From an uncultured bacterium (lineage in GTDB: Bacteria > Margulisbacteria > WOR-1 > CAZGTC01), in contig CAZGTC010000009.1 in assembly GCA_964528395.1 (NCBI GenBank), forward strand, positions 1,304-65,303: a DNA stretch of 64,000 nucleotides, given 5' to 3'. The notes under the pieces are model-generated. The model had not been told where the DNA came from. It saw nothing but the letters and a program-made list of their open reading frames with translations, and did not search any database. Position numbers and translations under genes: made by a program. Positions 36,713 through 63,999 of this stretch are shown piece by piece (the first letter of the stretch is position 1; every line of letters begins with the position of its first letter).

Positions 36713-36714
36713 CG

Positions 36715-36776
36715 ACTAACCAATAACCAATAACCAATAACTAATAACCAGCAACTAAAAACTAGAAATAAAAAAC
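36715..36776. repeat. Degenerate heptamer tandem array (CAATAAC)n, ~8 units
   Basis: caataac x3, then taataac, cagcaac, taaaaac, tagaaat, aaaaaac in 7-nt register from 36721. Confidence 0.75.
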
Positions 36777-38318: not shown

Positions 38319-38339
38319 TAAAAACCTCCTCAAAATAAA

Positions 38340-38395
38340 TTCCTAATTACTAATTCCGAATTCTTAATTAGACATTAGAAATTAGGCATTAGGAA
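38340..38395. repeat. Heptamer-built imperfect hairpin (4 units + 4 inverted units)
   Basis: ttcctaa ttactaa ttccgaa ttcttaa / ttagaca ttagaaa ttaggca ttaggaa; fills most of the intergenic space. Confidence 0.8.
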
Positions 38396-39667
38396 TTATT
38401 TTAGTCCCACGCGGATAACCGAAGAAACCTCTTTGACAACCTTTAGGCTTTTGATCCGGGCAATGGCTTTTTGGAAATTTTGATCTTTTACTTTATGCAA
38501 AATAATCACCAGCGAAGCGATTGTCCCATTGGTCTCTTGCTGGTGCACGGCATCGATGCTGACTTTTTCACCAGCAAAAAGCCCGGCAATTTTTTCCAGC
38601 ACCCCAAAGTGGTCCTCAACTTTTAAGCGTACGTAATAACGGCTCTCGGTTTCAAAAATACTTTTTATAGGGTAATGGTTTTTTAGTTCTAAATCCGCGC
38701 CATTGCCAGATATAATTTCACTGATATCTCCCCAAATCGCTGATCCAGTCGGCAGAGCTCCGGCTCCTTTGCCAGAAAGCATTTGTTCATCCACTGCATT
38801 TCCTTTTATATATATGGCATTAATTTCATTATTCACGGAAGAAAGCAAATGGTTCTTGGGTAAAAGCACTGGGTGCACCCGAACATCCAAAGATTGGTCC
38901 TCTTTCTTTGCAATCGCCAAAAGCTTGATGGCATAGCCCATGCGATCAGCAAATTGCAAATCTTCTAAAGCAATCTTAGCAATGCCCTCAAAATAAACTT
39001 TGCGGAAATCAATTTTGGAGCGAAAAGCTACGGCGGATAAAATTGCAGCTTTATAAGCCGCGTCCTGGCCCTCAATATCTGACGCTGGATTGCTTTCTGC
39101 AAAACCCATTTCTTGGGCTTCTTTTACGGCTTGGTTGAAAGATTTATTCTCCTGCGCCATTTTGGTTAAAATATAATTAGTTGTCCCATTTACAATCCCA
39201 TAGACTTCGGTAATTTTATTGGCTAAAAGAGGGTTTCTTAAAGTACAGATAATCGGGATGCCCCCGCCCACGGCTGCTTCAAAAAGAATTTTTACGTTAT
39301 TGGCGCGGGCTACGGTTAAAAATTCTTCCAAATGCTTGGCAATAACTTCTTTATTGGGAGTAACAACGTGCTTGCCTTTTTTCAAAGCGGATAAAATAAA
39401 TTCGCGGGCCGGCTTTTCTCCGCCAATCGCTTCTACCACAATATCAATCTGGGGATCATTGATAATTTGCCGGGCATCTTCAGTTAAAATTTCTTTGGCT
39501 AAGCCGGATTTTTTGCGGCAGCTTTCACTTATATCCGCAGCTTTAGCCAGATGAACCTGCACTCCGAGGCGCTCGTTAATTAAATTTTTATTTTTTTCAA
39601 AAAGCGCCGCCACCCCGCAGCCAATATTTCCCAAGCCAATAATACCTAAATTTACTGTTCGTTTCAT
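38396..39667 (-). CDS. hom: Homoserine dehydrogenase with ACT domain
   Basis: GLGNIG, FEAAVGGGIP, NGTTNYIL, GKGAG; start could extend to 39679. Confidence 0.96.
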   Translation of the reverse strand: MKRTVNLGIIGLGNIGCGVAALFEKNKNLINERLGVQVHLAKAADISESCRKKSGLAKEILTEDARQIINDPQIDIVVEAIGGEKPAREFILSALKKGKHVVTPNKEVIAKHLEEFLTVARANNVKILFEAAVGGGIPIICTLRNPLLANKITEVYGIVNGTTNYILTKMAQENKSFNQAVKEAQEMGFAESNPASDIEGQDAAYKAAILSAVAFRSKIDFRKVYFEGIAKIALEDLQFADRMGYAIKLLAIAKKEDQSLDVRVHPVLLPKNHLLSSVNNEINAIYIKGNAVDEQMLSGKGAGALPTGSAIWGDISEIISGNGADLELKNHYPIKSIFETESRYYVRLKVEDHFGVLEKIAGLFAGEKVSIDAVHQQETNGTIASLVIILHKVKDQNFQKAIARIKSLKVVKEVSSVIRVGLK

Positions 39668-48038: not shown

Positions 48039-48046
48039 AAAAATAA

Positions 48047-48102
48047 TTCCTAATTATTAATTCCTAATTTCTAATTATGAATTCGACATTAGTCATTCGG
48101 TA
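48047..48102. repeat. Heptamer-built imperfect hairpin, same family as 38340-38395
   Basis: ttcctaa ttattaa ttcctaa tttctaa ttatgaa ttcgaca ttagtca ttcggta. Confidence 0.75.
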
Positions 48103-48107
48103 TTATT

Positions 48108-48428
48108 TTACATCAGTCCTGGTATGTCTAATCCGCCGGTCAAGCCTTTGAATTGGTTCGCAGCAACTTTTTTTGCATCCCCCAAAGCCCGATTGGTAGC
48201 GTCTTTTATGCACATTTCCAAGCGCCGCATATTCCCATCCTTTATGACAGCAGGATCAACTTTTACTTCTTTTACTTCCATATCCCCAGAAACGGTAACA
48301 CTTACCCCGCCGGACTCCCCTGCCACCAATTCACTGGCCAATTTTTTTTGTATTTCCTTCATATTCTTGCGCATTTCATTGGCTTTTTTCAACATATCGC
48401 CCATTTGACCCAAATTTCCAAACACCAT
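48108..48428 (-). CDS. ybaB: YbaB/EbfC nucleoid-associated protein
   Basis: GESGGVSVTVSGD, DATNRAL, GGLDIPGL; between dnaX and recR. Confidence 0.93.
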   Translation of the reverse strand: MVFGNLGQMGDMLKKANEMRKNMKEIQKKLASELVAGESGGVSVTVSGDMEVKEVKVDPAVIKDGNMRRLEMCIKDATNRALGDAKKVAANQFKGLTGGLDIPGLM

Positions 48429-51202: not shown

Positions 51203-52038
51203 ACTTTAGCTGCCTCGCCTCGCCTACCGGCAGACAGGCACATTTTTTCCACATATTTGTCATCAATATAAAATTCTCCCAATTTATAATCCCGGCCCAC
51301 CCCTTCCCCATGGAAATCCGATCCGCCGGTCGGGAATAAATTATTTTTTTCACAGAGGTTGAGATAATTCTTTATCTGGTCAGGATTATGCGATGGATAA
51401 AAAACCTCAATGCCATCTAAACCAGCAGCAGTTAATGACGCGATAATCTGGTCGCAGCGGGAAACCGCAGGATGGGCAAAAACCGCCAAGCCATTTAGCT
51501 TTTTTATCAGCTTAACCGCATCTTCTGGGGATAATTTATAATGGCTGACATAAGCTGGACCGTGAAAACCAATATATTTATCAAAAGCTTCGCTAATGTA
51601 ATTAATTTTTTTTTCTTCCAAAAGAGCTTTGGCAACATGCAAGCGGCCCGGAGCTCCATCGCCTGCGATAGCAAACACCCTCTCTGGATAAATATCTACG
51701 CCGATTTTACTTAGTTTTTCAACCATTTTTAAAACCCGTTCATGCCGGCTATGTTTCATGTCTTTTAAAAGTGCATTTAAAGATGGCTCTTTATAATTAA
51801 TAAAATAACCTAAGATATGAATCTCTGCGCCTTTGGTTTCGCAGGAAAATTCTATGCCCGGAATAACAAAAAGTTCTTCCTTGGCCCCTTCGGATAAAGC
51901 TTCGTGCAAACCATCCACATTATCATGGTCAGTCAGGGCAATCGTCTTAAGATGGCCAGATTTAGCCGCCTGAACAAGTTTCGCAGGCGAATAAGTACCA
52001 TCGGAATGAATGGAATGCATATGCAAATCTGCTGGCAT
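51199..52038 (-). CDS. PHP-domain metal-dependent phosphoesterase
   Basis: DLHMHSIHSDG, ALTDHD, PGIEFS, HILGY, AHP, GGSDFHG. Confidence 0.92.
   Translation of the reverse strand: MPADLHMHSIHSDGTYSPAKLVQAAKSGHLKTIALTDHDNVDGLHEALSEGAKEELFVIPGIEFSCETKGAEIHILGYFINYKEPSLNALLKDMKHSRHERVLKMVEKLSKIGVDIYPERVFAIAGDGAPGRLHVAKALLEEKKINYISEAFDKYIGFHGPAYVSHYKLSPEDAVKLIKKLNGLAVFAHPAVSRCDQIIASLTAAGLDGIEVFYPSHNPDQIKNYLNLCEKNNLFPTGGSDFHGEGVGRDYKLGEFYIDDKYVEKMCLSAGRRGEAAKV
51218..51238. repeat. Short palindrome in the PHP gene 3' end
   Basis: cctcgcctaccggcagacagg, translated CLSAGRRG. Confidence 0.55.
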
Positions 52039-52046
52039 AGGCGGTA

Positions 52047-52055
52047 ATTATAACA
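52047..52055 (-). promoter_or_regulatory. Extended -10 (TGTTATAAT), 8 nt before the PHP ATG
   Basis: Motif read directly; no SD between it and the ATG. Confidence 0.6.
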
Positions 52056-53788: not shown

Positions 53789-53797
53789 TGTTATAAT
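53789..53797 (+). promoter_or_regulatory. Extended -10 (TGTTATAAT), 8 nt before ATG 53806
   Basis: Motif read directly; no SD. Confidence 0.6.
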
Positions 53798-58508: not shown

Positions 58509-58517
58509 ATTATATCA
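58509..58517 (-). promoter_or_regulatory. Extended -10 (TGATATAAT), 6 nt before the pyrR ATG
   Basis: Overlaps the PGM stop TGA; no SD. Confidence 0.5.
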
Positions 58518-59951
58518 AATTTTATTGATAATTGCCTTAACATCCTGCTGGATAAGGGATAATTTTTCCAAAGAATCTGACTCAAAATACCCCCTAAGCA
58601 ATGGCTCGGTGCCAGATGGACGAAGTAAAACCCAAGAAGATTGGTCTTCGAGCAAGAATTTAACTCCATCAATAATTTTTAGCTCTTTTACCTTTAGATT
58701 GCCAATAGTTTTTATGCCCTTGGCTGCCTGGGCTAATTTCTCTTTTACCCCGGGTTTTACCGGCAAATTAATTTTTCCCTGATAAAAAGCCCCTAATTCT
58801 TTTTCCAAATCCGCATAAATTTGCGAGAGAGGCTTATTATAAGCATTAAGCATCTCAACCATAAGCAAATCTGCCAAAGTCCCGTCTTTTTCCGGGATAT
58901 GGTTCAGGATTGAAAGCCCCCCGCTCTCTTCCCCGCCTAAGACCACTTTTTCTTTGAGCATGATTTCTGCGATATATTTAAAGCCCACGGGCACTTCGTG
59001 TAATTTAACTTTGTATTTAGTGGCTAACTTATCTAACATATGGGTTGTGCCAACTGATCTCACCAAGCTGCCGCGCCAGCCTTTTTTTTCCATTAAGTAA
59101 TTGGCGAGAAGAACAACCACGCGATGCGCGCTAATAAATTTCCCTTTTTCATCAATTACTCCAAAGCGATCCGCATCCCCGTCATTGGCCAGCCCTAAGT
59201 CACAAGTTTCAATTTTTACGGTTTTTGCCAGCTCATGCAAATTTTCTTCATCGGGCTCTGGAGACCTTCCTCCAAACAGAACATCGCGCTGGCAATTCAG
59301 TGCGATAATTTCATGGCCGAGTGATTCTAAAAAAGCATCAATATAACCTCGGCCTGACCCAAACATAGCATCATAAGCAATTTTTCTTTTGGTTTTCTTA
59401 ATTAAAGCTATATCTAAAAAAGAAGACAAATAATCAAAATAATTGGGGCGGGGATTAAAATGATCGAAGGTGCCTCGACACCTCGACTCCGCTCGGTGTC
59501 CAGAGCTGTCTCGTACCCTGAGCGGAGCCGAAGGGTTCGCTGAGAGCTCGCTTTTTAAATTCTCTTCTATTTCTTTGGTAATCGCTAAATTGGCTGGACC
59601 CGCATATTCTGGAATAAATTTTATGCCGCAATACTGCGCTGGATTGTGAGAAGCCGTGAGCATAATTGCACCAGAAGCTTTTCTTTGTTTTATTTCCCAG
59701 GCAATCACTGGAGTTGGGGTATCGCGGTCAGGAAATAAGCAATTGATTCCAGCCTCATTCATGACTTTAATGATTTCTAAAGCAAACTTATCTGCTAAGA
59801 ATCGAGCATCGTAGCCCACAATTAAAACTTTTTTATCTAATTTGTGTTTTTGCAGGTAAATAGAAATTGCCCGGGCTACTTTTTTGACATTTTCAAAAGT
59901 AAACTCATCGGAAATGATTGCCCGCCAGCCATCGGTTCCAAATTTAATCAT
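58515..59951 (-). CDS. Phosphoglucomutase/phosphomannomutase family protein
   Basis: FGTDGWR, TASHNP phosphoserine, DGDADRF, VPVGFK, GGEESGG, RPSGTEP. Confidence 0.95.
   Translation of the reverse strand: MIKFGTDGWRAIISDEFTFENVKKVARAISIYLQKHKLDKKVLIVGYDARFLADKFALEIIKVMNEAGINCLFPDRDTPTPVIAWEIKQRKASGAIMLTASHNPAQYCGIKFIPEYAGPANLAITKEIEENLKSELSANPSAPLRVRDSSGHRAESRCRGTFDHFNPRPNYFDYLSSFLDIALIKKTKRKIAYDAMFGSGRGYIDAFLESLGHEIIALNCQRDVLFGGRSPEPDEENLHELAKTVKIETCDLGLANDGDADRFGVIDEKGKFISAHRVVVLLANYLMEKKGWRGSLVRSVGTTHMLDKLATKYKVKLHEVPVGFKYIAEIMLKEKVVLGGEESGGLSILNHIPEKDGTLADLLMVEMLNAYNKPLSQIYADLEKELGAFYQGKINLPVKPGVKEKLAQAAKGIKTIGNLKVKELKIIDGVKFLLEDQSSWVLLRPSGTEPLLRGYFESDSLEKLSLIQQDVKAIINKI
59477..59536. 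repeat. Inverted pair of REP-like hairpins in frame within the PGM/PMM gene
   Basis: GACACC-TCGACTCCGCTC-GGTGTC (59477-59500) and ACCCT-GAGCGGAGCCGA-AGGGT (59515-59536). Confidence 0.85.
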
Positions 59952-59959
59952 AGGTGATG

Positions 59960-59999
59960 ATTATACCAGATTGTTTTATAGCCGAAAACCCTTTAAAAT
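59960..59999. promoter_or_regulatory. Divergent promoters for PGM (TGGTATAAT, - strand) and tadA (TTGTTT-N17-TAAAAT, + strand)
   Basis: Each -10 lies 8 nt before its ATG (59951; 60008), with no SD. Confidence 0.6.
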
Positions 60000-60007
60000 A
60001 GTAAGCT

Positions 60008-60457
60008 ATGCATGAAAGTTTTATGAAAGAAGCTTTGAAAGAAGCAAAAAAAGCTTATCAAAAAAACGATGTGCCGGTTGGCTGCGTGGCAGTGAAGAAC
60101 GGAAAAATCATTGCCCGCGCCCATAATCTGCGGGAATCAACCAATGATCCAACTGCGCACGCAGAAATCTTGTGCCTCAAAAAAGCTGCGAAAAAGCAAA
60201 AATGGTGGGTTTTAAAAGATGTAGATATTTATGTAACCTTAGAGCCCTGCCCCATGTGCACAGCAGCAATCATGCAGGCTAGGGCCAGAACTATCATATA
60301 CGGGGCGGACAATTTGTTGTGGGGGGCTTGCAGTAAAAAAATAAAACTAGTTGACAAAAAAATCTTTCAGCATAAAATAAAGATTGTAAAGAATGTTTTA
60401 CCTAAAGAATCTTCAACATTGCTGAAAAAGTTCTTCAAAAAAGTGCGCAAAAAATAA
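60008..60457 (+). CDS. tadA: tRNA adenosine(34) deaminase
   Basis: VPVGCV, DPTAHAE, TLEPCPMC. Confidence 0.92.
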   Translation: MHESFMKEALKEAKKAYQKNDVPVGCVAVKNGKIIARAHNLRESTNDPTAHAEILCLKKAAKKQKWWVLKDVDIYVTLEPCPMCTAAIMQARARTIIYGADNLLWGACSKKIKLVDKKIFQHKIKIVKNVLPKESSTLLKKFFKKVRKK

Positions 60458-60468
60458 ATTCCCGGTGC

Positions 60469-60498
60469 AAGAGACAGTCTAAACGCTGTCTCTTTTTT
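60469..60498 (+). terminator. Intrinsic terminator after tadA
   Basis: GAGACAG-tctaaacg-CTGTCTC followed by TTTTTT. Confidence 0.75.
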
Positions 60499-60503
60499 AT
60501 GGA

Positions 60504-60565
60504 GGTCTCCTCGACTCCGCTCGGAGACCAGGTCATTCAGGTCATTGAGCGAAGTCGAAATGACC
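60504..60565. repeat. REP-like inverted pair upstream of tRNA-Ser
   Basis: GGTCTCC-TCGACTCCGCTC-GGAGACC and GGTCATT-GAGCGAAGTCGA-AATGACC. Confidence 0.88.
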
Positions 60566-60573
60566 GCTATAAT
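60545..60573 (+). promoter_or_regulatory. TTGAGC-N17-TATAAT promoter for tRNA-Ser, -35 inside the repeat
   Basis: -35 at 60545-60550, -10 at 60568-60573, tRNA begins 60590. Confidence 0.7.
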
Positions 60574-60589
60574 ACAACAATAAATTTCT

Positions 60590-60678
60590 GGAAGAGTGGC
60601 CGAGTCTGGTTGAAGGCGGACGCCTCGAAAGCGTCTATACCTGAAAAGGTATCGGGGGTTCGAATCCTCCCTCTTCCG
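60590..60678 (+). tRNA. tRNA-Ser (CGA), 3' CCA not encoded
   Basis: GGAAGAG/CTCTTCC acceptor stem, GACGC-CTCGAAA-GCGTC anticodon arm, long variable arm ATACC-TGAAAA-GGTAT, GTTCGAA T-loop, G73. Confidence 0.96.
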
Positions 60679-60726
60679 TTCCCCGGGTATATTCCGGGCA
60701 CATCCTTTACACTTTTTTATGACCAC

Positions 60727-60788
60727 GTTCCCTTCGACTCCGCTCAGGGAACTGAACAATCGGTCATTGAGCGGAACCGAAATGACCG
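60727..60788. repeat. REP-like inverted pair upstream of the GIY-YIG gene
   Basis: GTTCCCT-TCGACTCCGCTC-AGGGAAC and CGGTCATT-GAGCGGAACCGA-AATGACCG. Confidence 0.88.
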
Positions 60789-60795
60789 TTATAAT
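60767..60795 (+). promoter_or_regulatory. TTGAGC-N17-TATAAT promoter, 6 nt before the GIY-YIG ATG
   Basis: -35 at 60767-60772, -10 at 60790-60795, ATG 60802, no SD. Confidence 0.7.
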
Positions 60796-60801
60796 ACAGG
60801 C

Positions 60802-61179
60802 ATGAAAGGCTACATGTATATTTTAGAGTGTGGAGATGGAACATATTATACAGGCAGCACTAAAAATCTAGAAAAACGTCTGCTAGAACATGGTAATTCT
60901 ATGGGAGCAAACTACACAAAAAAGAAACAACCTCTCAAATTAGTATACTTCGAAGAATATCCAAGAATTGACGAGGCTTTTCATAGAGAAAAACAAGTTC
61001 AAGGTTGGAGTCATGCAAAGAAAAAAGCTCTGATAGAAAGCAAATTCAAAGATTTGCCTCCGTTATCTGAGTGCAAAAATGTTAGCCATTATAAAAACAG
61101 TCGCATCGATTCGACGGACACTTCGACTTCGCTCAGTGTTCGACCCCACTCGGCAACCATCACTCGGTATCCGAGTTAG
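60802..61179 (+). CDS. Small stand-alone GIY-YIG nuclease (UPF0213/YhbQ-like)
   Basis: YMYILECGDGTYYTGST, RLLEH, GANYT, LVYFEE, AFHREKQVQGWS..KKKALI; start set at ATG 60802 because the upstream ORF part overlaps the tRNA. Confidence 0.9.
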   Translation: MKGYMYILECGDGTYYTGSTKNLEKRLLEHGNSMGANYTKKKQPLKLVYFEEYPRIDEAFHREKQVQGWSHAKKKALIESKFKDLPPLSECKNVSHYKNSRIDSTDTSTSLSVRPHSATITRYPS

Positions 61180-61207
61180 TTCGTCATTGAACATAGTCGA
61201 AACGACC
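61116..61207. repeat. REP-like pair downstream of and overlapping the GIY-YIG 3' end, with an internal small hairpin
   Basis: GACACT-TCGACTTCGCTC-AGTGTT; ACTCGG-TAT-CCGAGT; degenerate GTCATT-GAACATAGTCGA-AACGAC. Confidence 0.8.
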
Positions 61208-61259
61208 ACGTAAATATTAATAATCATCAGAATCTATATTTTATATAATCTCAGGAAAA

Positions 61260-61817
61260 ATGTTAAAATACAAACATATGCAAACAACACAATCACTAGA
61301 CCAAATGAAAGCTAATATTGATGGAATTTTTAATAGACGGTTATTAAATATCCCTAACGATATCAAAAAAGAATTTCCAGATATTCTGAAAGCAGAAAAT
61401 ACTCATCAAATAACTTACTATGCAGAAAACAGATATCTTCTTATTGCCTTTTTTTACGCAAAAGAACTCGAAAGAATCAATCAGTTTCTAAATAATAATC
61501 ATCATCCATTTCCCGGCTTAATATCAGAAGACGCGAAAAACCCCGGGGCTTTTAAGTTACAAGATAGCAGAAATATCTTAATTGAAAACTGTACAATATC
61601 AAACACATTTTCATTCTCAAACTGCAAAGATTCAACTATTTTACTAAAAAATCATGAACAGAATATAACTACTAATGAAATCAACCAATTAAACTATAAA
61701 ATTGATTTAGCTTTCATTGTTTTTTTAGGAAAAAATATTAACAATGAAAATTTATTGGAAAACTTAGAAAACTTAACAACCTTTGCAGTCAACAAATGGA
61801 GCTCAAAAATTGGATAA
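61260..61817 (+). CDS. Hypothetical protein, very AT-rich
   Basis: 185-aa ORF with no recognised motif; overlaps the next ORF. Confidence 0.6.
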   Translation: MLKYKHMQTTQSLDQMKANIDGIFNRRLLNIPNDIKKEFPDILKAENTHQITYYAENRYLLIAFFYAKELERINQFLNNNHHPFPGLISEDAKNPGAFKLQDSRNILIENCTISNTFSFSNCKDSTILLKNHEQNITTNEINQLNYKIDLAFIVFLGKNINNENLLENLENLTTFAVNKWSSKIG

Positions 61818-62466
61818 TCCATATGAAGAATTAAAAGGTTTAATTTCTTCTAAAAATAAAAATGAAATCCTGTGTAGGAAATATCTAAAACATACACCTC
61901 AAATTCTATTTAATAAGTCAGTAATAGCCCTTATAAATTTTGATGAGGAAGATCGTGGAAGTTCTGGAGATTCCGATTATGTTATATCCGGAATAGTTAA
62001 AAACGACGCAGGTAGTGAATATAATTTAGCTTATATATGGGAAGTAAAAGCTGCCCAATGTTATATTTTTGAAGAAGAAACAAAAAATAGACTTAAACCG
62101 TCATCAGATTTAGTAAAAGCAGAAAATCAATTAATAAATTATTATAATGACAAAAAAGGAGATGAAAAATTCAGAAATCGTTTTAAAATAACACACTCAA
62201 ATTTTGTAAAAATAGGAGGGATAATAATCGGATCAAATAAAACATTAATAAAATCAAAAAAAATAAAATCAAAACAAACCTTTCTTGAAGCCTCAAGTTT
62301 AAGAGAAAATACTCTATATAAAAGCCCGGGCATAAGATTAATAATTTGGGATACTATTTTAGATCAATTAAAAAATCAAGAATATAACAATAAAACAGAA
62401 AATGGAAAAATAAAAAACATCTCAATCCCAAATGCTCAAACAGCTAATTTCATTAAAATAGATTAA
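61810..62466 (+). CDS. Shedu/DUF4263-like PD-(D/E)XK nuclease domain protein
   Basis: NE..CRKYL...PQIL, SDYV, WEVK, PSSDLVKAENQLINY, IIIGS, IRLIIWDTIL; TTG 61810 follows GGAG (ORF track starts at 61783). Confidence 0.65.
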   Translation: MDNPYEELKGLISSKNKNEILCRKYLKHTPQILFNKSVIALINFDEEDRGSSGDSDYVISGIVKNDAGSEYNLAYIWEVKAAQCYIFEEETKNRLKPSSDLVKAENQLINYYNDKKGDEKFRNRFKITHSNFVKIGGIIIGSNKTLIKSKKIKSKQTFLEASSLRENTLYKSPGIRLIIWDTILDQLKNQEYNNKTENGKIKNISIPNAQTANFIKID

Positions 62467-62516
62467 TAAATTTTTCATAATATATAAATTTAATTCAAAA
62501 TAAAGAAAAGTAACTT

Positions 62517-62632
62517 GGTCGTTGAGCGGAGTCGAAACGATCTTCTTAAAGTACCCTTCGACTCTATAGACACCTCGATTCTGCTCGGTGATCGGATAAC
62601 TCGGTCGTTGAGCGCGGTCACTGAGCGCAGCG
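62517..62632. repeat. REP-like cluster closing the island
   Basis: GGTCGTT-GAGCGGAGTCGA-AACGATC; partial CCTTCGACTC; CACC-TCGATTCTGCTC-GGTG; further decayed TTGAGCG/CTGAGCG copies. Confidence 0.8.
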
Positions 62633-62682
62633 ATACCACATTTGTCATTTGACATTTTTAATTGTTAATTGGAGCGCAGCGA

Positions 62683-63999
<1,317 letters not shown>

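Follow-up and report, generated by a model that had tools for sequence, protein, structure and literature searches.

The terminal repeats of insertion sequences (IS) carry −35 boxes that join a resident −10, and the Correia elements (CREE) of Neisseria carry promoters. In sigma-70 promoters a −35 can make up for a missing extended −10, and leaderless promoters, in which the −10 lies a few nucleotides (nt) before the start codon, are well known in Actinobacteria and Deinococcus. REP and BIME repeats pair with RAYT transposases, forming what are termed REPINs (PMC3116915, PMC2817692), and SegB of phage T4 is a free-standing GIY-YIG homing endonuclease in a tRNA gene cluster (PMC2330249). Here we analyze a stretch of 64,000 nt from an uncultured bacterium of the Margulisbacteria (WOR-1, CAZGTC01), comprising positions 1,304 to 65,303 of contig CAZGTC010000009.1 in assembly GCA_964528395.1 and referred to below as the window, in which paired hairpin repeats stand before a tRNA-Ser(CGA) gene and before a gene for a small GIY-YIG nuclease. 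We favor, with a little better than even confidence, the view that two of these hairpins are part of hybrid promoters that arose by local duplication, the downstream one being a real leaderless promoter for the nuclease gene and the upstream one an added promoter for an imported tRNA. All features are on the plus strand unless a minus strand is given.

Two promoter-like modules in adjacent hairpin pairs

The sequence TTGAGC-N17-TATAAT is present at 60545-60573 (module 1) and at 60767-60795 (module 2), and in a promoter consensus scan each has 10 of 12 consensus matches, four of six in the −35 and all six in the −10, at a spacing that falls within the 17 ± 1 nt expected of a sigma-70-type promoter. 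Both lie at the right-hand member of a hairpin pair. The window contains two hairpin types, A, with the loop TCGACTCCGCTC, and B, whose loop, GAGCGRARYCGA, is the reverse complement of that of A. The pair before the tRNA (60504-60565) consists of A1 (60504-60529; stem GGTCTCC/GGAGACC, loop TCGACTCCGCTC, repeat family D8) and B1 (60540-60565; stem GGTCATT/AATGACC), and the pair before the nuclease gene (60727-60787) of A2 (60727-60752; stem GTTCCCT/AGGGAAC, the same loop, also D8) and B2 (60762-60787). B1 is a 26-nt hairpin, GGTCATT-GAGCGAAGTCGA-AATGACC, the loop of which is the reverse complement of the A-type loop, and B2 has the same stem with three loop changes (GAGCGGAACCGA); no matches are expected in shuffled sequence.

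That near-identical modules occur at 60540-60575 and 60762-60797, with the −35 inside the hairpin and the −10 just outside it, was noticed in the initial annotation, and the sequence, a repeat finder and the promoter scan all agree with this. The two are 89% identical across 37 nt (family D6), including 11 nt outside the hairpin, GYTATAATACA, at which 10 of the 11 positions are alike after B1 and B2. TTGAGC (60545-60550 and 60767-60772) straddles the junction between the 5' stem and the loop, and TATAAT (60568-60573 and 60790-60795) begins 2 nt past the hairpin. Their positions relative to the two genes also proved to be as annotated, and the copy before the GIY-YIG gene has a geometry like that of the native leaderless promoters described below. 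Module 1 ends ~16 nt upstream of tRNA-Ser(CGA), with a predicted start at ~60580, ~10 nt upstream of the tRNA, and the TATAAT of module 2 is exactly 6 nt from the GIY-YIG ATG at 60802, such that the predicted start is at or beside the A of that ATG and the mRNA would be leaderless.

This layout can be compared with that of other genes in the window. An exact TATAAT ending 5-10 nt before the start is found at 6 of the 58 open reading frames (ORFs) of at least 150 amino acids (aa), where 0.14 would be expected. The gap between TATAAT and start is 6 nt for pyrR, 8 nt for PGM, the start of which is set by homology (the match to Pfam domain I runs from residue 2), and 8 or 10 nt for the other native genes. 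In four native cases, namely pyrR, PGM and the genes starting at 52038 and 53806, the motif is TGnTATAAT. It stands 6-8 nt before an ATG with neither a −35 nor a Shine-Dalgarno sequence, for example at 58509-58514 (minus strand), 59960-59965 (minus), 52047-52052 (minus) and 53792-53797 (plus). In this deep-branching groundwater bacterium, genes seem as a rule to be transcribed without a leader from promoters with an extended −10. The nuclease gene has the same arrangement, with a 6-nt gap, a conserved ATG and no Shine-Dalgarno sequence before it. The N-terminus MKGYMYILEC is conserved among homologues, and at the position of the 60802 start codon 55 of 80 homologous loci have ATG and 2 have GTG. 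The ATG at 60814, for which AAAGG might serve as a Shine-Dalgarno sequence, was considered as the true start and rejected, as homologues keep the first methionine and some replace the second.

The modules themselves have no TGn, as they read CGC-TATAAT and CGT-TATAAT, and hence neither has an extended −10. Since a −35 can compensate for the lack of TGn, a contribution from the repeat is plausible, and its TTGAGC plausibly stands in for what the modules are missing. A sigma-70-type reading is reasonable for this organism given that its ribosomal protein L2 is ~60% identical to proteins of Margulisbacteria, Saganbacteria, Atribacteria and Firmicutes; the organism is not a member of Bacteroidota. 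In Bacteroidota such hexamers would mean little.

How much of this promoter belongs to the repeat is answered by its other copies. It had been suggested that the repeat as a whole is a portable promoter, with −35 and −10 spreading together through genomes and driving whatever gene lies downstream, and the two copies in question do face genes at suitable distances. The −35 half of that suggestion stands, in that every B hairpin with a stem ending in TT carries TTGAGC, the TT closing the stem and GAGC opening the loop. The −10 half does not. The identical B1 hairpin is present in at least 120 metagenome stretches, and among the matches listed TATAAT is found at N17 in none of 116 non-redundant identical hairpins, in which −10 matches of five or more positions are no commoner at a spacer of 17 than at other offsets. 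Nor is TATAAT found at N16-18 in any of 279 distinct TTGAGC-type B hairpins, with any stem, from other genomes. At the closest GIY-YIG homologues (74-79% identity) no −10 follows the B hairpin, which lies 15-45 nt before the ATG, and in the window there is none after the two further copies B3 and B4, the latter of which faces no gene at all. Hence the repeat consensus does not contain both hexamers in the manner of the Correia elements: the TTGAGC −35 is intrinsic to the repeat and TATAAT is a local addition. A promoter that travels as a unit is accordingly very improbable, and what is found, in two of the four B copies of the window, is the layout of a hybrid promoter, with an outward −35 in the repeat and a −10 in the adjoining non-repeat DNA.

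The 11 bases common to the two sites point to a local duplication of the hairpin together with its flank. Such a duplication, acting on the B hairpins of two adjacent hairpin-pair copies, would have yielded two hybrid promoters, each with its −35 from the repeat and its −10 from the flank. Module 2 most likely serves as the promoter from which the GIY-YIG gene is expressed as a leaderless mRNA, while module 1 probably starts transcription ~10 nt before tRNA-Ser(CGA). We infer both the direction of the duplication and the firing of either module, whereas the layout of the modules, the spread of the family, its lack of a −10 at other copies, the leaderless pattern and, below, the limits of the cassette and the exchange of the tRNA are shown by sequence.

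Several observations weigh against the hybrid-promoter reading. Matches of 10 out of 12 are frequent in AT-rich DNA (42% G+C), and promoter-like sites number 21 in 6 kb against 15.7 ± 4.5 expected, which is no enrichment over composition; likewise, across the whole window a perfect TATAAT with a −35 of at least four matches occurs at 6 sites against 6.5 expected. What is beyond chance is the repeat and the common 11-nt extension rather than the promoter match. Both hexamers are spared by the four substitutions that separate the copies, yet this is not significant given the constraint that the hairpin imposes (p ~ 0.14 by our estimate). The native promoters here use no canonical −35, and read-through from upstream could serve the tRNA fully, as it must in a relative discussed below. 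Finally, CTTTTTTATG also precedes both A hairpins (60492-60501 and 60712-60721), and hence the duplicated or targeted unit may be longer than the module and the common flank may have a meaning that has nothing to do with promoters.

This last point leads to a different account, in which CTTTTTTATG before A and GYTATAATACA after B would be the ends or the preferred target site of a mobile unit of ~85 nt, the likeness to a promoter being incidental or secondary. The two units are indeed alike in layout and nearly equal in length (84 and 86 nt) between the flanks, and an in-frame insertion in the PGM gene, which a relative lacks, and arrays at two loci from other phyla (L001 and L003) show the family acting as mobile DNA. 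However, the flanks are found neither beside the other copies in the window (the PGM unit, A3-B3 and B4-A4) nor beside the 116 metagenome copies among the matches listed, and the left flank of the first unit is the ancestral tadA terminator, which is present in relatives that lack the repeat. We therefore regard mobile-unit ends as an improbable explanation of the shared flanks.

Possible transcription from tadA and the proposed role of module 1

The gene upstream of the tRNA is tadA, encoding tRNA adenosine deaminase (60008-60457; Pfam MafB19-deam 3.8e-37, dCMP_cyt_deam_1 1.1e-30), and by means of the tadA protein cluster we recovered two relatives of the locus, L205 and L206, the tadA genes of which are 87-90% identical to that of the window at the nucleotide level. 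It is followed by a terminator-like hairpin and TTTTTTAT (60469-60500), with a 10-bp stem at 60469-60494 and then T6, for which the predicted RNA fold has an energy of −14.8 kcal/mol (z = −3.8). The hairpin is kept in L205 and L206, and in both it is immediately followed by the start of the tRNA or of the tRNA's 5' half. In L205 a complete tRNA-Ser(CGA) starts 2 nt past the T-run (TTTTTTAT, then the tRNA), which leaves no space for a promoter, and hence the tRNA must there be transcribed through the tadA hairpin. This argues that termination at the hairpin is only partial. The proposal that a terminator after tadA isolates the tRNA from upstream transcription is thus right as to the hairpin and the T-run, which are present, and probably goes too far as to isolation, which is unlikely to be complete with a tRNA abutting the structure in L205. 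The comparison of upstream regions with a relative free of the repeat, put forward as a way to check whether the tRNA relies on the repeat, gives no support to such reliance, as the tRNA of that relative directly follows the hairpin and is read from upstream.

A source for this upstream transcription may lie within tadA itself. The 3' part of the gene contains TTGACA-N16-TAAAAT (60351-60378), which with 11 of 12 matches is the best sigma-70-type match in the 6-kb region and is kept in L205 and L206. It falls in a tract of 74 nt (60320-60393) that has no substitutions in the three genomes, which otherwise differ by 7-13% in tadA (permutation p = 5e-5). The tract could represent an embedded promoter or a gene-conversion tract beside an insertion hot spot, and the internal site is a candidate promoter feeding the downstream tRNA.

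These findings bear on the possibility that neither module is functional, a repeat bearing TTGAGC having simply been duplicated along with an AT-rich flank while the tRNA and the nuclease gene are both read from upstream through the tadA hairpin. Read-through must occur in the lineage, as L205 attests, and in L206 a new tRNA begins 4 nt past the stop codon of a GIY-YIG gene and has no promoter of its own. The invariant tract with its promoter-like site offers a starting point for such a transcript, no canonical terminator was found between the tRNA and the GIY-YIG gene, and, as already noted, the matches at the modules do not exceed chance. Set against this, a perfect TATAAT placed 6 nt before a conserved ATG fits the pattern seen at 6 of 58 genes against 0.14 expected, the two copies agree in 10 of the 11 bases of the extension, and a read-through transcript would translate the nuclease poorly, given that no Shine-Dalgarno sequence precedes its ATG. 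On this evidence we consider non-functional modules a real but clearly less probable alternative.

In the hybrid-promoter reading, module 1 would supplement upstream transcription, whether from the tadA promoter or from the internal TTGACA-N16-TAAAAT, and would not be the sole source of the tRNA. The initial annotation also raised the extrusion of the hairpins, or the binding of the nuclease, as a means of regulating both genes. With a stem of 7 bp and a loop of 12 nt, the hairpins are not well suited to cruciform extrusion from duplex DNA.

The tRNA cassette, the nuclease and the hairpin family

The tRNA-Ser(CGA) of the window (60590-60678) was found by ARAGORN and scores 52.3 bits with the Rfam tRNA model. 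It is only 76-77% identical to those of L205 and L206, which are 83% identical to each other, while for the protein genes on either side identity is 86-93% (in comparisons of the window with the relatives, the values are those given above for tadA and 86% for ahcY). A tRNA that is more divergent than its flanks indicates that it was exchanged rather than having diverged in place. In L205 the order is tadA, hairpin, tRNA-Ser(CGA), 145 nt and the end of ahcY, with no repeat pair before the tRNA, no nuclease gene and neither of two ORFs found here, ORF185 and ORF227. What L206 retains of the old tRNA is its first 38 nt, which reach the anticodon; after these come small hairpins, a different GIY-YIG gene of 80 aa and the new, complete tRNA-Ser(CGA) mentioned above. 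In that relative (L206, 1278-1706) the old tRNA is cut in the anticodon loop beside the tadA hairpin, and the small hairpins are of a CCGCC/GGCGG type. The arrangements in L206 and in the window show that one site was struck independently by two different GIY-YIG elements.

The edges of the exchanged segment can be placed by alignment with these relatives. Their tRNAs start GGAGGAGTGGC at the position of the GGAGG (60501-60505) that in the window follows TTTTTTAT, and the window diverges from them from 60506 on, such that this GGAGG is a probable 5' remnant of the displaced resident tRNA-Ser(CGA) and marks the left edge of the cassette. At the other end, the hairpin A4 (62570-62590) can be aligned to the A hairpin located after the tRNA of L205, which puts the right edge at ~62569. 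By these alignments, 60506 to ~62569 (~2.06 kb) is a lineage-specific cassette comprising the tRNA, the GIY-YIG gene, ORF185 and a Shedu-like ORF, and it replaced the resident tRNA. ORF185 (61260-61817) has its own TATAAT at 61244-61249 and no family match. ORF227 (61783-62466) has a weak similarity to Shedu SduA/DUF4263 (SduA_C at 1.6e-4, which is below the Pfam cut-off, and PADLOC SduA at 3.1e-5). Together they may constitute a small defense module that travels with the nuclease and the tRNA.

The claim that a housekeeping tRNA depends on a repeat-derived promoter is accordingly not sustained: the tRNA is, by this analysis, a divergent allele imported in a cassette of ~2 kb, and L205 has its own tRNA-Ser(CGA) without the repeat. 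The label itself may be weakened further, as tRNA-Ser(CGA) is dispensable in some bacteria having tRNA-Ser(UGA). Two further ideas were set aside. One is that a unit of ~89 nt entered an otherwise resident tRNA at its 5' end, with GGAG/GGAA as the duplicated target. Replacement of the whole tRNA is more likely, given the 24% difference in the tRNA body and the compensatory changes seen in several of its stems. A family-wide link between the elements and tRNA genes was rejected, in that the 12 tRNAs in 1.1 Mb of fetched loci are about the density that we estimate to be typical of bacteria. As there is no enrichment of tRNA genes near the elements elsewhere, the link to the tRNA is a local one.

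The nuclease gene (60802-61179) encodes a UPF0213-like protein of 125 aa with a GIY-YIG domain (PF01541, E = 6e-17), and its 3' end runs through the hairpin A3. GIY-YIG is the only significant Pfam match, that to T5orf172 being below the cut-off, and no further domain was found in Pfam or NCBIfam in this protein, which consists of a catalytic domain and a short tail. NCBIfam has no named family that matches the nuclease, ORF185 or ORF227, and the exact nuclease protein of the window has no entry in the contig index. Among known structures the protein resembles the UPF0213 entries 1ZG2 (E = 1.3e-14) and 1YWL (4e-9) in the Protein Data Bank. It has more than 4,600 relatives in many phyla, with 60-80% identity among the best matches, and this level of identity across phyla suggests horizontal spread.

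Family hairpins occur at five places in the 64-kb window and nowhere else in it. In addition to the pairs before the tRNA and the nuclease gene, an A-B pair follows the nuclease gene (61116-61207), consisting of A3 (61116-61141), the degenerate B3 (61182-61207; D6, 70%) and, between them, a spacer that contains a further small hairpin, and a pair in the order B-A is located before ahcY (62517-62590), in which B4 occupies 62517-62542 and A4 the position given above. The fifth is an A-B pair inside the PGM gene (59469-59552). In this PGM/PMM gene (58515-59951, minus strand) the unit lies in frame between Pfam domains I and II and encodes ...LRVRDSSGHRAESRCRGT..., and a relative in run X4 that is ~88% identical has 36 unrelated nt in its place.

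Across the family, the conserved part is the 12-nt loop, which is TCGRCNNNGCTC or its complement, while the stems vary between copies yet stay complementary. The fetched loci yielded 520 distinct cores, of which 334 have at least 5 bp of contiguous flanking stem, as opposed to 6 when a shifted control is scored, and the stems are of 87 kinds (for example GGTCATT, GGTGGTT and GTTCGTT). A conserved loop with covarying stems implies that the hairpin itself is under selection. The hairpins are also clearly associated with the nuclease: a stemmed core hairpin is found no more than 400 nt from the GIY-YIG gene in the loci of 67 of 80 species, and hairpin density is 3.18 per kb near the gene versus 0.07 per kb farther out, an enrichment of ~45-fold within 400 nt. 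Long arrays are present at L001 and L003. These tandem arrays (L001, 3290-3440; L003, 2600-2960) are translated by gene callers as the C-terminus of the nuclease, and such translation (six AAFDSAQG repeats, for example) swells the annotated length of family members from 100 to ~200 aa. The hairpins match no known RNA family, as a search of 59000-63000 against Rfam at a permissive threshold recovered only the tRNA, and no description of the hairpin family, or of a link between UPF0213 and hairpin repeats, was found in the searchable literature, which omits most subscription journals.

Two other repeats were seen in the window. An AT-rich palindromic repeat of 70 nt (of the TAATTCCTAATTA... type) is present at 38333-38402 and 48040-48109, its two copies being 81% identical and situated in intergenic gaps 9.6 kb apart, and it bears no relation to the hairpins that accompany the GIY-YIG gene. 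Tandem GGTTATT units are found directly upstream of tRNA-Trp (36713-36760, minus strand), with no clear promoter there, and this tRNA may be co-transcribed with the rpmG-like gene upstream of it.

Significance and comparison with known systems

If the promoter story is true, it is a further case of a mobile repeat lending a −35 to a neighboring gene, and its impact is modest, although it would show a horizontally moving nuclease gene adapting to a host with leaderless transcription. The more novel lead is the repeat/UPF0213 system together with the cassette that replaces a tRNA, the promoter being of an ordinary repeat-assisted kind. A tRNA-Ser(CGA) gene was replaced by a cassette bearing its own copy of that tRNA, and hairpins with a conserved loop accompany UPF0213 GIY-YIG genes across many phyla and can be found in frame within a housekeeping gene. 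We tentatively suggest, as a possibility that we hold to be somewhat less than even, that the hairpin repeats and the UPF0213-type GIY-YIG genes represent a previously undescribed mobile system, comparable to REP/RAYT and distributed across phyla, in which the nuclease would recognize the 12-nt loop, and that here such an element replaced a tRNA gene, brought in defense-like genes and evolved hybrid promoters adapted to its host. For UPF0213, the association offers a function that can be tested, that of the enzyme working with a family of repeats.

The promoters that we propose are like the hybrid promoters of IS and small repeats in that a mobile repeat gives an outward promoter element, in this case the −35, before more than one gene. 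They are unlike them in that the element repeated here is a hairpin of 26 nt whose loop is conserved, and not an IS end or a MITE (miniature inverted-repeat transposable element) of 100-150 bp. From Correia-type promoters they differ in that only the −35 is repeat-borne, the −10 is found in two local copies among several hundred examined, and the promoter is a predicted one. With leaderless promoters module 2 shares a TATAAT 6 nt before the ATG and the absence of a Shine-Dalgarno sequence, which is also the layout at pyrR and PGM, while the native examples have TGn and no −35 and the module has no TGn and TTGAGC at N17.

As for the repeat family, the resemblance to REP/BIME and RAYT lies in short, alternating hairpins in pairs and arrays, mostly intergenic, that cluster around and flank a gene for a small nuclease. 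Here, however, the partner is a GIY-YIG nuclease and not an HUH/Y1 (IS200-like) transposase, the loop is conserved and the stem variable, which is the reverse of what is seen in REPs, and there is no GTAG or CGTC tag. The locus is also similar to that of SegB-type enzymes, with a GIY-YIG catalytic domain encoded beside a tRNA gene and with a polymorphic site that is empty in L205, holds another GIY-YIG gene in L206 and this one in the window, the tRNA alleles having been swapped. Presence and absence of the gene combined with a swap of tRNA alleles is the pattern that would be expected of nuclease-driven gene conversion. Unlike SegB-type enzymes, the protein in the window has no recognizable DNA-binding domain, and tRNA genes are not enriched near members of its family elsewhere. 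There is also a direct likeness to UPF0213 itself, represented by BH0048 (1ZG2) and EF2693 (1YWL), to which the nuclease is related by sequence and the structures of which were deposited under the name 'Hypothetical UPF0213 protein'.

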